From: Bacilli bacterium
Lineage (GTDB): Bacteria; Bacillota_I; Bacilli_A; RFN20; CAG-449
DNA length: 64,000 bases
Direction of reading: 5' to 3'
Assembly: GCA_900755065.1 (NCBI GenBank)
Contig: CAAEFC010000006.1
Coordinates: forward strand, 31,828-95,827
Under the pieces are notes generated by a model, which saw only the letters and a program-made list of their open reading frames with translations, was not told the origin of the DNA and did no database searches. The translations under genes were made by a program, and so were the position numbers. How positions within the stretch are numbered: the first letter of the stretch is position 1; each line of letters opens with the position of its first letter. Positions 9,942-24,159 of this stretch are shown here, piece after piece.

Positions 9942-10213
9942 AAAGGGAAAGTTCTCGGCTTTCAAAACGGAGAAACGATTACAACACAAACAAGCAGTTA
10001 TGTCATTTACGAAGAACAACAGGACGGTTCCTTAAAAAGGAAACGAACCAAGAAAATCGGCAACACGGTATATACGGTGATTGCCAGAGAAAGGCTGAAC
10101 GCAAGAGAAACGGCGTTCGACACGGCAAAACGATTGATTGAGAACGGCGCAGACAGCGCCTTATCAATAAACGACTCACTTGAAGGCTGTCATTCGGGAG
10201 GTAATAAAGAATG
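9942..10213 (+). pseudogene. start-less remnant of the small protein that precedes serine recombinase genes (homologue of 18052..18360)
   Basis: Frame ending GCHSGGNKE* just before the recombinase start reads TKKIGNTVYTVIARERLNARETAFDTAKRLIENG, similar to TRRIGSTTYKLKVHFSENATETMEEKILRMVKNE of ORF 18052. No in-frame start after an upstream TAG. Confidence 0.3.
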
Positions 10214-10335
10214 AATTTTCAGCCGACAAATAAAAACAAAAGAAACAGAAACTTATCGGAACAGGCAACCGCCCTCTACTGCCGTCTTTCATGCGACGAC
10301 GATTCGGAGGGTGATTCCAACAGTATCAAAAACCA
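10211..10335 (+). pseudogene. 5' part of an interrupted large serine recombinase gene (resolvase catalytic motif)
   Basis: MNFQ...ALYCRLSCDDDSEGDSNSIKNQ matches ALYERLSRDDDQVGDSNSIVNQ of the intact recombinase. Similarity stops exactly after ...NQ at 10335. The continuation QKLLLGKYAEEQ... resumes at 22621. Confidence 0.6.
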
Positions 10336-10478
10336 AGTGGTAATATGTAAAGGGTGGTTTCTACCATCTAATACATATGACTGCAGCTCATTTGTGGTGA
10401 ATTGAAAAGCAGTTATAGGAAAGGAGCAGAAAAAGTCTTATAACCGCAACAAATTCAACACAGAAAGGAGCTGTTTTT

Positions 10479-10850
10479 ATGAAATCATTATTTGAGAAAA
10501 TGGGCGGTACATACCGTCAAGAGGGAGAGTATCTTATCCCCAACCTTACTTTGCCGAATGGCAGCGACTATGAAATCGGCAAATATGGGCGTATGCGCCT
10601 CGCTTATCTGAAAGAATACCGAAAAATCCTCTACACCAATTACATTACAGAAGGCACTTTATCAAAGCACCTATCCGAGATCGACCAAGCCTGCAACGAG
10701 CGTATGGAAAATCTCGTTCCCGCTATGGCAAAACAAGAAGGCGCGACCGAAGCACTCAAAGCGGAAGACCAAATGGAGTGGGTGTGCCTTATGAATAGCA
10801 TTCGCAACCGCGCGGAAGAAATCATTTTGCGGGAGGTGGTATTCGTATGA
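10479..10850 (+). CDS. tnpV: TnpV-family transposon protein
   Basis: MKSLFEKMGGTY...GKYGRMRLAYLKEYRKILYTNYITEGTLSKHLSEIDQACNERMENLV is the TnpV pattern of Tn4451-like elements. RBS AGGAG. Confidence 0.65.
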   Translation: MKSLFEKMGGTYRQEGEYLIPNLTLPNGSDYEIGKYGRMRLAYLKEYRKILYTNYITEGTLSKHLSEIDQACNERMENLVPAMAKQEGATEALKAEDQMEWVCLMNSIRNRAEEIILREVVFV

Positions 10851-11128
10851 GGTCTGTTATCAACGAGCTATGGCACGGAAACATCGTTCCGCAAGAGGAT
10901 AGCCGCACCAATTCCAAAGAAATGAAAGAACTTCTCGGCTATATGTCGCGTCATCACGAGGACTTGGAGAAAAGTTTCTCTGATGAGCAGAAAGAAGTAT
11001 TTGAGAAATTCCACGATTGTTGGAGTGAGTATATGAGCTTGGCGGAGGTAGCTATCTTTGCGTATGCTTTCAAGCTTGGTGCAAAAATTACATTTGAAAT
11101 ACTTAATACAGATTTATATAACACTTAA
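10847..11128 (+). CDS. small hypothetical protein translationally coupled to tnpV (ATGA overlap)
   Basis: 93 aa, MRSVINELWHGNIVPQEDSRTNSKEMKELLGYM... The start overlaps the tnpV stop. Confidence 0.45.
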   Translation: MRSVINELWHGNIVPQEDSRTNSKEMKELLGYMSRHHEDLEKSFSDEQKEVFEKFHDCWSEYMSLAEVAIFAYAFKLGAKITFEILNTDLYNT

Positions 11129-20669: not shown

Positions 20670-20793
20670 GTGTTGGGGCGTTCGGGCAACCGAGCGTCCC
20701 GCTATCTTTATCCCGAAGGGCGCACTTACTCACCACTCGCAAAGCGAATGGTGTACTGCCTACGGCAGACGTGCGCTCTGCGAGGCGAAGGAG

Positions 20794-22501
20794 GTGATCG
20801 CCTATCGCCATATACCATCTTGAAGCGAAAGTCATCACTCGTGGCACAGGTCGCTCCGCAGTAGCCGCTGCCGCCTATATGAGCTGCTCCCACATCTATA
20901 ACGATTACGACGGCTTTACCCACGATTACACCCGAAAGCGGGGACTTATCTATGAGCAGGTGTTTTTGCCCGACAATGCCCCAAAGGAGTGGTCAGACCG
21001 AAGCGTATTATGGAACGCCGTGGAAGAAGCCGAAAAGACGAAGGATAGCCGCCTCTCCCGTGAGCTTATCATTGCCTTACCCGTAGAGTTCGACCTATCG
21101 GTTTGGGAGAGGATGCTGCAAGAATATATCAAGCGGAATTTCGTAAACAGAGGTATGTGTGCTGACCTTTGTATTCACGATACCGACGGGCATAATCCAC
21201 ACGCTCATATTATGCTGACGGTGCGCCCCTTGAACAAGGACGGCACTTGGCAACGCAAGACCGAAAAGGAATATCTGTGTGTCCGTAACAGAGAGGAACG
21301 CGGCTTTACCTCTGCCGAATACAAGGCGGTGCAGAACGAGGGATGGGAGAAGCAGTATTTATACAAGATCGGCAAGAAAAAAGAATACCTCCCGCCATCA
21401 AAAGCGGAAGGCTTGGAGCGCGTGAACAAGTATCCGAAAAGCACGAAGTACGGCAGACAAAATCCTATCTCGGAGGCGTGGAACAGCGAGGAAACTCTAC
21501 TTGAATGGAGGGAGCGTTGGGCAAGCCTTGTCAATTCCTATTTCAAAGAATTTGAAATGGACGAGAGCATCGACCACCGTAGCTTTCGGGCAAGGGATAT
21601 TAAGAAGCAGCCTACCGTTCACGTTGGCGTTTCGGGCTTTGCCATCTTCAAAAAGAAACGCTATTGCGACCGCTACGAGCTAAACCGATTGATACAGCAG
21701 GACAATCAATTTATTGATGACATCGTGAAGACCATTGAGTATTTGGTGAAAACCATTGCCTTGGCGGTAGGTGCGATTGCCGAAGCCCTTGAGGTTGCCC
21801 GCGTGGAGTTGATCTGTCTGAAATACAGAGAACGCCGCTTGAATATCGCGCACACAACGGGAGCGTATTACCACGAATACGACAAGGAGCGTTTGAAATC
21901 CTACCACGCTCTGACAGAGCAGATCGAGCAGAAAACGAGTGAGCGAAACGAAGCAATCAAGGAAAGCAAGCGTTTCTTTCTCAAAGCCGATAGGCGCGCA
22001 GAGCTTACACGGATTATTTCAAAGCTGACCAACGAAATGGAGAGCCGACGTAATATGCTTCTTGAATACTTGAAGTGCAAGAGTACCGACGATATTTCGC
22101 AAGCCGAGACACGTATCAAAGAAGCTGAAGAAAACTTGCCGAAAATCCAAGCCGAGTGGGATAAGACCGACGAGGCTTTGGAAGAAGCTATTTCCGAATA
22201 CGGTAAGCTAAAAGCAAAGGCAAGCGACTTTGACAAGGACGAGCTTGACAACGCCCGTAAGCTAATCCGCACCGACAAGGAGAGCGAAGCAAGGAAGAAG
22301 ATCGAAGCGGAACACGGAAGATGTAACGACCAAGATTTTGATGATAGTAAGGAGTATATCAACAAGCGCATTGGAGAATATGACGAGCCGCCGAAGAAAG
22401 AATCGGAAGTAAAACCTGTCTATGAAGCTCCACCGCAAGAAACACAAGAGCGCAAAGCTCCGAGCAAATCCAAACGAGAGCGTGATGGATGGGATAGGTA
22501 G
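20794..22501 (+). pseudogene. mobA: MobA/MobL (MobQ-type) relaxase with N-terminus disrupted by a 7-bp tandem duplication
   Basis: Expected start GTG(20794)-ATC-GCC follows RBS GAAGGAGG. The direct repeat ATCGCCT-ATCGCCA (20797-20810) shifts the frame. The GTG frame hits TGA at 20821. The relaxase frame (IAIYHLEAKVITRGTGRSAVAAAAYMSCSH..., HNPHAHIML) has TGA at 20795 and no start before Met 20879. That Met lies downstream of the predicted catalytic Tyr (AAAAY). Confidence 0.5.
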
Positions 22502-22605
22502 CACAATCGGGGCGAAATCCCATATTTTTAGCCCTCGTTCCGCAATGAAACGAGGACTAACAAAAAAATATTTAAGGTTTTTGCAACTTTTGCAGAAAAA
22601 CCCCT

Positions 22606-24159
22606 TGACAAATCTCTTCTCAAAAACTGCTGCTCGGCAAGTATGCCGAAGAACAGCGATTCCGCAATCCGAGATACTATATCGACGACGGATATTCGGG
22701 AAGCAACTTCGATAGACCTGCGTTTAAGCGTCTGATCGAGGATGTGGAGAACGGAGAAATAGCGACGATCATCGTCAAGGATATGTCAAGATTCGGGCGC
22801 GACCACATACTCGTGGGATATTACACGAAATACTTTCTGCCCGAAGCGGACGTGCGGTTTATCGCCGTGTACGACCAAGTGGACAGCGAGAAAAACGCAG
22901 ACGATGACATTACCCCTTTCCGCAATATCCTCAACGAGATGTACGCCAAAGATTGCAGTAAAAAAATCAAAGCCGTCATTCGTGCCAAAGGCAACAATGG
23001 AAAACATATCACCACATTGCCCCCGCTCGGATACAGAAAGGATCCTGACAATAAAGAAAAGTGGGTGATCGAAGAACAAGGCGCAACCATCGTAAGAGAG
23101 ATATTTTCTCTCTGCGTTCAGGGTTACGGCCCGACGCAAATCGCAAGGATACTGACCGAACGAAAGATTGATACGCCCGTGATTCACTTTCATAAGCACG
23201 GACTTCCCACATCGATGAAGATAAAGGAAAAATCGGAAATCTGGTGTCAGCGAACGGTTGCAAGGATTTTGGAAAATTTGGTATATACGGGCTGTACCGT
23301 CAACTTCAAGTCTTACAAAAAGTCCTATAAAAGCAAACGTTCGCTTTCAAATCCAAGAGAGAATTGGGCAATCTTTGAAGACACGCAGGAAGCGATTATC
23401 GACAAAGAAACCTTTGACACCGTGCAGAAAATCCGAAACGGACGACGCAGACCAAGCGATTTGGGCGAAATGAATATGCTTTCGGGAATGCTCTATTGTG
23501 CCGACTGCGGCAAAAAGATGTATTTATGCAGATGTTCCACCGTCAAGCAAGCGGAATACTTCAACTGTTCGTCTTACCGAAAGCAAAAGAAACGCACCTG
23601 TACATCGCATCAGATTACGGCTCACGCCGTGGAAGAAATGATCGCGGACGACTTACGGTTTACCGTTCGGTTTGCAAACGAACAGAAAGAGCAATTCCTC
23701 GAACTTCTCAAACGCAAGGCAGACCTTACCGAAAGGAAAACGCTGAACGCGAATCTTCGGGAATCGGAAGAAGCCGAAATCCGAATGAAAGCATTGGACA
23801 AAATCATCCAAAGCCTTTATGAGGACAAGGTAGAAAACAAAATCTCGGAAGAACGGTATCTGAAACTGAGCGACGCTTACGAGCAGGAACAAAAAGCCTT
23901 GACGGAACGATTGAAAACCCTGTGCGAAGAAACGGAACGGTTCAAAACGAAAACGGATCAGATTCAACGGTTTATGGCGTTAGTCAGAAAGTACAGCGAA
24001 TTTGAAACGCTGACGCCCGAAATCTTACGGGCATTCATAGACAGAGTTCTGATTTATGAAAAGGAAAAGATTGACGGTCATTACAGACACACAATTGAGA
24101 TTGTCTACAACTTCGTAGGTGCGGTAGAAATCCCCGCTTTGGATAATCTCGACAAATAG
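22606..24159 (+). pseudogene. body of a second large serine recombinase lacking its catalytic N-terminus (3' part of the interrupted gene)
   Basis: QKLLLGKYAEEQRFRNPRYYIDDGYSGSNFDRPAFKRLIEDVENGEIATIIVKDMSRFGRD... aligns with residues ~38 onward of the intact recombinase. An upstream in-frame TGA at 22603 and absence of the ~35 N-terminal residues, which are found at 10211..10335. Confidence 0.6.

Follow-up and report, generated by a model that had tools for sequence, protein, structure and literature searches.

The question raised by the locus described here is why the gene of a large serine recombinase (LSR) lies in two pieces on either side of 12.3 kb of DNA which carries a recombinase gene of its own. 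The locus is contained in a stretch of 64,000 nucleotides from a Bacilli bacterium (GenBank assembly GCA_900755065.1, contig CAAEFC010000006.1, positions 31,828 to 95,827 of the forward strand). This whole stretch is called the window, and positions refer to it unless a contig is named. A first-pass annotation of the letters alone had suggested that one serine recombinase element had used the recombinase gene of a relative as its bacterial attachment site (attB). The insert, 12,287 bp in length, is an integrative mobilizable element (IME) with TnpV, TnpW, an LSR, DUF3847, and MobQ, and it resembles Tn6104 and Tn4451. That it was integrated site-specifically by its own LSR into the LSR gene of another element, at an attB which is preferred throughout its clade, is the explanation favoured here, with a probability of about 0.88.

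The two recombinase fragments, which had been read as halves of one gene, do belong together. Positions 10211-10335 encode MNFQPTNKNKRNRNLSEQATALYCRLSCDDDSEGDSNSIKNQ (MNFQ...YCRLSCDDDSEGDSNSIKNQ), and past 10335 this frame enters unrelated sequence and ends with a stop at 10405. The frame of the open reading frame (ORF) 22744-24159, when read from 22621, yields QKLLLGKYAEEQ... (QKLLLGKYAEEQRFRNPRYYIDDGYSG...), and just 5' of this body a stop codon is found in the same frame at 22606-22608. Joining of 10211-10335 to 22623-24159 gives an LSR of 553 amino acids with Resolvase (residues 21-169), Recombinase, Zn_ribbon_recom, and DUF4368 domains, all of them above the Pfam cut-offs. Homologues of the joined protein with 67-89% identity have 548-562 amino acids, and the sequence DSNSI(K/R)NQK(L/M/I)LL spans the junction in them. 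An uninterrupted recombinase was sought in other assemblies and found twice. One is the 89% identical P0001 from another genome (contig L001), the gene of which could be aligned to the left fragment as far as ...AACCAA and to the right fragment from CAAAAACT... onwards. The other is P0241, a protein in a collection of 15 billion sequences which is identical to the joined protein over all 553 amino acids. P0241 is encoded on three contigs (L098-L100) from three sequencing runs, at the same chromosomal locus as in the window and with the same neighbours, namely genes for a NUDIX protein, a 648-amino-acid Flg_new protein, enolase, an IMS-domain (Y-family polymerase) protein, YolD, endonuclease I, DHQ synthase, and chorismate synthase. 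Positions 1-2294 of L098 match positions 8043-10336 of the window with 99.96% DNA identity and positions 2292-13830 match 22621-34159 with 99.47%, the two alignments overlapping by CAA. The empty site in this contig reads ...AGTATCAAAAACCAAAAACTGCTG... (...GATTCCAACAGTATCAAAAACCAAAAACTGCTGCTCGGC...). The occupied allele was seen in about 21 contigs from independent samples, and the truncated LSR always followed. The matching empty locus and this recurrence exclude an assembly artefact. The insertion is real and precise.

A precise junction in frame with a CA core had also been proposed, and both the breakpoints of the empty sites and the host genes with a CAG codon agree with it. The contigs with the empty locus, the flanks of which are 99.5-99.97% identical to the window, break at the predicted junction 10336/22621, and the 2-bp CA is present at both junctions with no further bases duplicated, as in a conservative insertion. 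The dinucleotide stands as the true core, while the bases which the two junctions share in the window are three, CAA, rather than CA. The core is CA and not AA because three host genes (L009, L012, L035) have CAG as the glutamine codon. The size of 12,285 bp given before holds for the DNA between the cores; it becomes 12,287 bp if one core copy is counted.

The expectation that the insert carries an intact serine recombinase and a relaxase of its own was confirmed by domain search, which found one LSR and one MobQ-type relaxase. With a PF03389 relaxase, an adjacent PF12958 gene, and its own integrase the insert has the features of a MOBQ2-type IME. Genes of a type IV secretion system (VirB4, coupling protein) were not found among the annotated genes and domains of 10336-22620. 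The four domains of the joined host LSR exceed the Pfam cut-offs in the LSR of the insert as well, and the YxRxS serine motif is YCRLS in the host LSR and YERLS in the LSR of the insert. The identity of the two recombinases had been put too high at about 45%; it is 40% over 538 amino acids and reaches about 47% in the catalytic domain.

If the recombinase gene were a true target of this enzyme, relatives of the insert might be found at the same place in other genes. A scan of one genome per species yielded 80 loci with LSRs 57-83% identical to that of the insert, in Oscillospiraceae, Lachnospiraceae, Christensenellales, Erysipelotrichales-like genera, and others. Together with closer relatives fetched earlier these loci gave 45 informative left junctions, and 39 of them lie at the same glutamine codon, in the SNSIxNQ motif, of LSR genes. 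In 31 cases a direct N-terminal LSR fragment ends exactly at the glutamine codon of SxSIxxQ, and in eight an inverted LSR body begins at this codon. The host LSR genes which are hit comprise at least 25 distinct sequences. On the right side, the CA-class junctions which lead into LSR bodies are 13 distinct ones, all at the same codon, and both of the two copies which were located by their right-end DNA alone are followed by LSR bodies. The use of a relative's recombinase gene as attB, first proposed for this single locus, is a trait of the family according to these 39 left and 13 right junctions.

The ends and the core of the elements are conserved as well. The family left end has the consensus ga(g/t)(t/g)ta(a/c)tatgta(a/g)agggtggttt, and in the relatives on contigs L005-7 it comes after ...YCRLSQDDGREGESNSISNQ. 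LSRs which are 95% identical to that of the insert occur with different cargos and in different host LSR genes. In these close relatives the right end reads ...caaatctcttct (...cccTTGACAaatctcttct) and is followed by CA(A/G) and differing LSR bodies (QKAILLKY, QKEILAQY, QRRILEKY, QKKMLAKY, QRSLLNEF), and every one of their contigs which is long enough contains the TnpW-LSR-DUF3847-Mob block and then a second, N-terminally truncated LSR.

The attB of the family has a length of roughly 44 bp. From 28 left and 20 right half-sites the consensus GA.agcAActccAT....AAc-CA-aAAa...ATgcT.ga..AgTa was obtained. Its invariant positions coincide with codon positions one and two of residues which do not vary either, namely G(D/E), Ile, Asn, Gln, and the two hydrophobic residues that come after (K/R)x. 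The site is for this reason kept in every gene which keeps the protein motif, and since attB is tied to this motif the IMEs land in other integrative elements and not in host genes. The imperfect dyad symmetry for which the attachment sites had been nominated was observed: the two halves of attB share CAT-N7-CA-N7-ATG, and the arms of the element's own attachment site (attP) match at 13 of 21 positions when one arm is reverse-complemented. In a position weight matrix (PWM) from which the window site had been excluded during training, the reconstituted attB scored +29.9, compared with -46.7 +/- 13.3 for the background of all 6,410 CA sites in the window. Off-target insertion sites had scores between real attB sites and background.

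Another line of evidence comes from the polarity of the core. In large serine recombinases the central dinucleotide alone sets the polarity of integration, and a flipped core predicts a flipped orientation. A sub-lineage with the same arms and the same attB has a TG core and the opposite orientation (L059-L061, L065, L066, L069, L070, L086, and L017 among others), and in this way the position of the core is independently confirmed. TG is found at the left as well as the right junction of L060 and L069, the flanks of which add up to GESNSIQNQKRILEDY and NESMSISSQKLMLKDY. The TG-core junctions were located at 2773 and 16232 in L060, at 8701 and 22130 in L069, at 19398 in L086, and at 4724 in L017.

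The best attB-like site left in the window lies in the LSR gene of the insert itself (CA core 18465-18466, codons SNSIVNQKKYLEGY, PWM score +27.1). No true target has a right half-site with so low a score, as a tyrosine codon (TAC) here replaces the Ile, Leu, or Met codon and puts A in place of the invariant T at +9. At this position (Y/Q)L was found in all LSRs of the family which were seen, and (I/L/M)L in 20 of 20 targets. A role of the tyrosine codon in self-immunity is a speculation for which this pattern is suggestive but not convincing.

The following course of events may be proposed. The 676-amino-acid LSR is the presumed catalyst of the integration because it is the sole recombinase in the insert. 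This DUF4368-type enzyme would bind the dyad-like arms of attP and attB, cut at CA, exchange the half-sites, and religate them to attL (10334-5) and attR (22621-2). The attP used would have been ...TTGACAaatctcttct-CA-agtggTAATATgtaaagggtgg... (predicted joint ...CCCCTTGACAAATCTCTTCT-CA-AGTGGTAATATGTAAAGGG...), and the crossover would take place at the CA of the glutamine codon in G(D/E)SNSIxNQ(K/R)x(I/L/M)L. Insertion at this site would part the first 42 residues, which include the nucleophilic serine motif YCRLS, from the rest of the host LSR. As the serine motif then sits on a detached fragment of 42 residues, the host LSR should be inactive while the site is occupied, and the host element would be immobilised as long as the guest is in place. 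Precise excision, of which the insert is presumably still capable, would restore the host LSR; TnpV, TnpW, and the HTH_17 protein are candidates for a directionality factor. In the predicted circular joint TTGACA (22605-22610) is followed by aatctcttct, CA, agtgg, and TAATAT (10341-10346). A sigma-70-like promoter of the form TTGACA-17-TAATAT would be assembled only across this joint, facing tnpV and not the LSR gene, and would switch on tnpV and the genes downstream of it after excision. By promoter-scan criteria no promoter on the plus strand was found at attL or attR.

A number of observations weigh against this scheme of site-specific integration by a mobile element. Six of the 45 left junctions lie outside recognisable LSR genes, and the specificity is for this reason strong but not absolute. 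In L053 (5398) and, probably, in L018 (4774) an inverted LSR body is joined through CA and not through TG, an outcome not expected from simple integration; these two junctions may go back to a rearrangement between elements or to a mismatched-core event. The circular attP joint was not found when JGI metagenome contigs were searched for the exact and degenerate pattern. A looser joint pattern had 16 matches in the viral contigs of IMG/VR, all of them ordinary sigma-70-type promoters with no likeness to the element arms, which shows the likeness of the predicted joint to a canonical promoter. In the attP arms TTGACA and TAATAT double as the dyad-symmetric parts, and because the same hexamers form these symmetric cores a function as promoter is no more than plausible. 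Contigs with the occupied allele by far outnumber those with the empty one (49 with the truncated product and about 21 with the insert LSR, versus seven with the intact product), so that excision may be rare or lost. These points have to be considered together with the other explanations which the locus allows. The two LSR pieces might be unrelated remnants, tandem recombinase genes, or the product of a chimeric assembly at the junction, and operons with two or three adjacent serine integrase genes do occur in integrative and conjugative elements (ICEs) of Firmicutes. The joined sequence is a real protein of 553 amino acids in independent assemblies at the same locus, however, the downstream piece is without exactly those residues which the upstream piece supplies, and the occupied state was seen again in about 21 contigs from different samples. 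This explanation is refuted by P0241 and the contigs with the empty locus and retains next to no probability. A chance landing by a low-specificity TnpX/TndX-like recombinase with DUF4368, which would require only a dinucleotide and loose flanks, is very improbable as well. It could call on the six off-target junctions, on the many GA sites used by Tn4451, and on the classification of DUF4368 LSRs as a 'multi-targeting' clade with relaxed specificity and short target motifs (Durrant et al. 2022, PMC10083194). On the left side 39 junctions, and on the right side every one of the 13 distinct ones of the CA class which enter a gene body, nevertheless fall on one codon in at least 25 LSR genes, sampling by the right end alone led to LSR genes in two of two cases, and even the off-target left flanks which were scored lie about 1 to 4 standard deviations above the left-half background of the attB matrix. 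The family shares DUF4368, the TndX-like architecture, and the bacterial groups with the clade of Durrant et al. but has an attB of about 44 bp in a fast-diverging gene family, and clustering of target genes at 50% identity would for this reason label a motif-specific family such as this one 'multi-targeting'.

Two further explanations accept the integration and differ in what became of the element. The insert might be a fixed fossil which integrated once and no longer excises, leaving the host LSR as a permanent pseudogene. The dominance of the occupied allele in public assemblies and the failure to find the attP joint in the JGI metagenome contigs would be in line with this, and it is nevertheless unlikely. 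All genes of the insert including those of the LSR and the relaxase are intact, the locus is seen both occupied and empty with flanks which are 99.5-99.97% identical, and relatives with 95% identical LSRs and core segments of 85-92% nucleotide identity reside in different host genes, which indicates recent movement. Recent mobility of the element is argued for by the same three features, the intact genes, the coexistence of the alleles at 99.5% identity or more, and the near-identical copies in different host genes. Decidedly unlikely is a domesticated, programmed switch comparable to skin in sigK or SPbeta in spsM, in which excision on a signal would turn on the host recombinase. Precise excision would indeed give back an intact host LSR, HTH_17, TnpV, and TnpW are candidate directionality or regulatory factors, and a promoter is predicted in the circular form only. 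The host LSR genes in which the insert family occurs are many and unrelated, as are the host elements and their cargos, which is more in line with opportunistic parasitism than with co-adapted regulation, and there is no evidence of any excision trigger.

Part of this picture is familiar from other elements. Nested 'matryoshka' elements are common in Firmicutes, and serine recombinase IMEs inside conserved ICE genes (traG, maff2, SNF2) or rumA have been described. The nearest characterised relative of the insert is Tn6104 of Clostridioides difficile R20291, which has a TnpX-like LSR, TnpV, MobA/MobL, and a 2-bp repeat, for which a circular form has been shown, and which is located in traG. Like the insert, Tn6104, Tn6105, Tn6106, and the streptococcal serine recombinase IMEs combine a TnpX-related LSR, TnpV, a MobA/MobL relaxase, and a 2-bp direct repeat, and they disrupt a conserved gene of another mobile element at an internal site. 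These IMEs target conjugation genes (traG/VirD4, maff2, SNF2), whereas the clade of the insert targets a motif in the catalytic domain of a recombinase gene, with a preference shared by a large clade and with CA (TG in a sub-lineage) as the core.

Tn4451 and Tn4453 share with the insert a TnpX-type DUF4368 LSR, TnpV (PF14198), TnpW (PF14202), and a 2-bp core; TnpV and TnpW were first reported as accessory genes from Tn4451. Both transposons excise as a circle, as the insert is presumed to do, and are mobilizable. In Tn4451 the relaxase is of the MOBV type (TnpZ), the core is GA, and the target sites are many, in contrast to the MobQ relaxase, the CA core, and the LSR gene motif of the insert. 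Because relaxase, core, and target range differ, the insert is not a strict member of the Tn4451 family. A promoter is reportedly formed across the circular joint of Tn4451. The predicted joint promoter of the insert is a parallel to it but faces tnpV, and the joint is located between mob and tnpV while the attP of Tn4451 adjoins tnpX. The skin element with SpoIVCA in sigK, SPbeta with SprA in spsM, and the fdxN element with XisF are LSR elements whose precise excision regenerates an ORF. They are single, developmentally programmed elements in one host gene each, unlike the insert family with its mobile-element hosts, its many target genes, and no known programme. An NCBIfam search gave a weak XisF match.

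The mobilisation module of the insert is of the MOBQ2 type described for IMEs of Faecalibacterium (Guedon et al. 2025, PMC12084326). In these IMEs, which are abundant in gut Clostridia and usually nested as 'matryoshkas', a PF03389 relaxase has an adjacent PF12958 and often a PF14198 gene (PMC12084326). One element in this work is named ICE_Fpr918_intser, and by the naming convention of the group the suffix 'intser' implies integration in a serine integrase gene. Recombinase gene targeting, the site, the core, and orientation classes are not described in the main text of PMC12084326, supplements aside. No paper which describes LSR genes as a dedicated attB was found in a literature search, the sole hint being this name. 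IMEs which are driven by an LSR and lie within a conserved gene of another element are already known. New are the recombinase gene as target, the breadth of the habit, and the natural CA/TG polarity classes; systematic targeting of this kind appears to be undescribed.

The insert belongs to a widespread clade of elements in gut Clostridia which, as the junctions suggest, specialises in parasitising other mobile DNA. The nesting of elements follows a clear logic here, the integrase having come to recognise DNA which encodes a conserved motif of its own protein family. A landing site exists wherever other integrative elements do, its use comes at no cost to the bacterium, and a competitor or carrier element should be disabled. 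A more far-reaching proposal, possible but clearly tentative, is that these IMEs are dedicated hyperparasites for which the DNA of the LSR catalytic motif is a universal landing pad. Insertion and excision would then act as a reversible lock in which the host element becomes free to excise, and possibly to be transferred jointly, once the guest has excised, polarity would be set by the flipped CA/TG core, and the own LSR gene may escape by its tyrosine codon. A testable hierarchy is raised by this, in which the host could move only after the departure of the guest. For the parsing of ICE and IME 'matryoshkas' in gut Firmicutes it follows that a truncated recombinase gene which comes after a MobQ gene is to be read as one half of an attB and not as an extra integrase. 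The classification of LSRs as 'multi-targeting' is also affected, since identity-clustered target genes would misplace families of this kind. The at least 30 attB variants and the CA/TG core swap for one LSR clade form a natural set which should be useful for studies of specificity and for engineering.

Coordinates of the host element, the split recombinase gene, and the inserted mobilizable element in the window
Feature	Position	Strand	Remarks
Approximate left end of host element	1869..1950		84% over 83 bp vs L001 6211-6293
Host-element cargo	2231..9884		GC 0.30-0.40; surface-type proteins (Flg_new, Big_2, Peptidase_C39-like)
5' fragment of host LSR gene	10211..10335	+	42 codons; catalytic-serine motif YCRLS and SNSIKNQ; attB left arm
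CA crossover core at attL	10334..10335	+	First two bases of Gln42 codon CAA
Insert left end (attP right arm)	10336..10405	+	agtggTAATATgtaaagggtggtttct...; family-conserved; -10-like TAATAT at 10341-10346
tnpV homologue	10479..10850	+	PF14198, E 1.6e-44
DUF6809 protein	10847..11128	+	Accompanies TnpV in relatives
DnaG-like primase (cargo)	11174..13177	-	Zinc finger and catalytic core, with sigma-70 region-4 helix-turn-helix
Helicase IV/UvrD-like superfamily 1 helicase (cargo)	13187..16495	-	1102 amino acids; C-terminal RQC domain
HTH_17 small DNA-binding protein	16522..16752	-	Excisionase/AlpA-type
Family-conserved non-coding region	16840..18050	+	Five dispersed 34-nt direct repeats at 16940-17691
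tnpW homologue	18052..18360	+	PF14202
Intact LSR of the insert	18357..20387	+	676 amino acids; Resolvase, Recombinase, Zn_ribbon_recom, DUF4368, Cys-rich C-terminal tail; presumed integrase/excisionase
DUF3847 small protein	20466..20669	+	PF12958 (Pfam on identical locus L101); usual partner of MOBQ2 relaxases
MobA/MobL (MobQ-type) relaxase	20879..22501	+	MobA_MobL 246 bits; PF03389
Insert right end (attP left arm)	22575..22620	+	...aaaaaccccTTGACAaatctcttct; -35-like TTGACA at 22605-22610
CA crossover core at attR	22621..22622	+	
3' body of host LSR gene	22621..24159	+	Gln42 to stop codon; attB right arm; without catalytic serine
Right end of host element	24160..24243		L001 similarity stops at about 24243 (84 bp past stop codon); chromosomal NUDIX next

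The cargo of the insert was examined with PADLOC and NCBIfam, which gave only partial likeness (RTasHel/GajB-like helicase, DnaG-like primase) and no complete known defence system. In relatives anti-phage-type cargo takes the place of the primase/helicase pair. In L003 (1-8271) a type ISP restriction enzyme is combined with an AAA_15/OLD-TOPRIM protein and a UvrD helicase (Gabija-like, GajA/GajB-like), interrupted by IS110; L005 (4537-8722) has an McrBC cargo and L008 (1-8155) an AAA/radical-SAM set. The insert family looks like a shuttle for defence genes. In L016 the right end at 16446 is followed by CA and then by GTGGCAAATAGGTGACA..., which is like a diverged left end and suggests two elements in tandem, possibly by accretion; on its left, this element is flanked by an N-terminal LSR fragment of the normal kind. 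Among the plasmids of PLSDB there was no megablast match to the LSR-Mob module of the insert.

The five repeats in the non-coding region are all on the plus strand and have the core TGAGGGGMT (five matches vs 0.5 expected). The gene-free region of 1.3 kb in which they lie is 85-92% conserved in relatives with unrelated cargo, and no known RNA was found in the conserved non-coding region with Rfam (gathering thresholds for the whole window, E<=1 over 16400-18400). The repeats resemble iterons or protein-binding arrays and might serve as an origin of transfer, a replication origin, or a regulator array ahead of tnpW-LSR. Beyond DUF4368 the LSR of the insert has a C-terminal extension of about 120 amino acids, which the host LSR of 553 amino acids is without. 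At 20139-20340 (residues of about 595-660) it contains two copies of CxxCGKEF-x(7-9)-YCSxxCR, an FCS-like zinc finger with a weak 'Ecl1' Pfam match, and this extension could contribute to site recognition.

The host element is a small integrative element of about 10 kb without the guest, extending from about 1869 to 24243 with approximate ends. This extent was deduced because only three segments are common to the window and L001, where the 89% identical LSR homologue lies at a different chromosomal place with a cargo of the Ada/Ogt/AlkA type. Besides the two end segments given in the table, the LSR gene itself and 350 bp upstream of it are shared; about 8 kb of low-GC genes for surface-type proteins are located between the shared segments. 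The ends (1869-1950 and 24160-24243) are the only shared parts outside the LSR and carry an inverted CCCATAGGG / CCCTATGGG motif; they are probably the binding sites of the host LSR itself. In the host cargo a direct repeat of 251 bp with 85% identity (7667-7917 and 7934-8184) lies inside the minus-strand ORF 7635-8348, the product of which is an internally repeated protein of 237 amino acids. Unrelated to the insertion, a cluster of three tRNA genes is found at 47997-48446 of the window.

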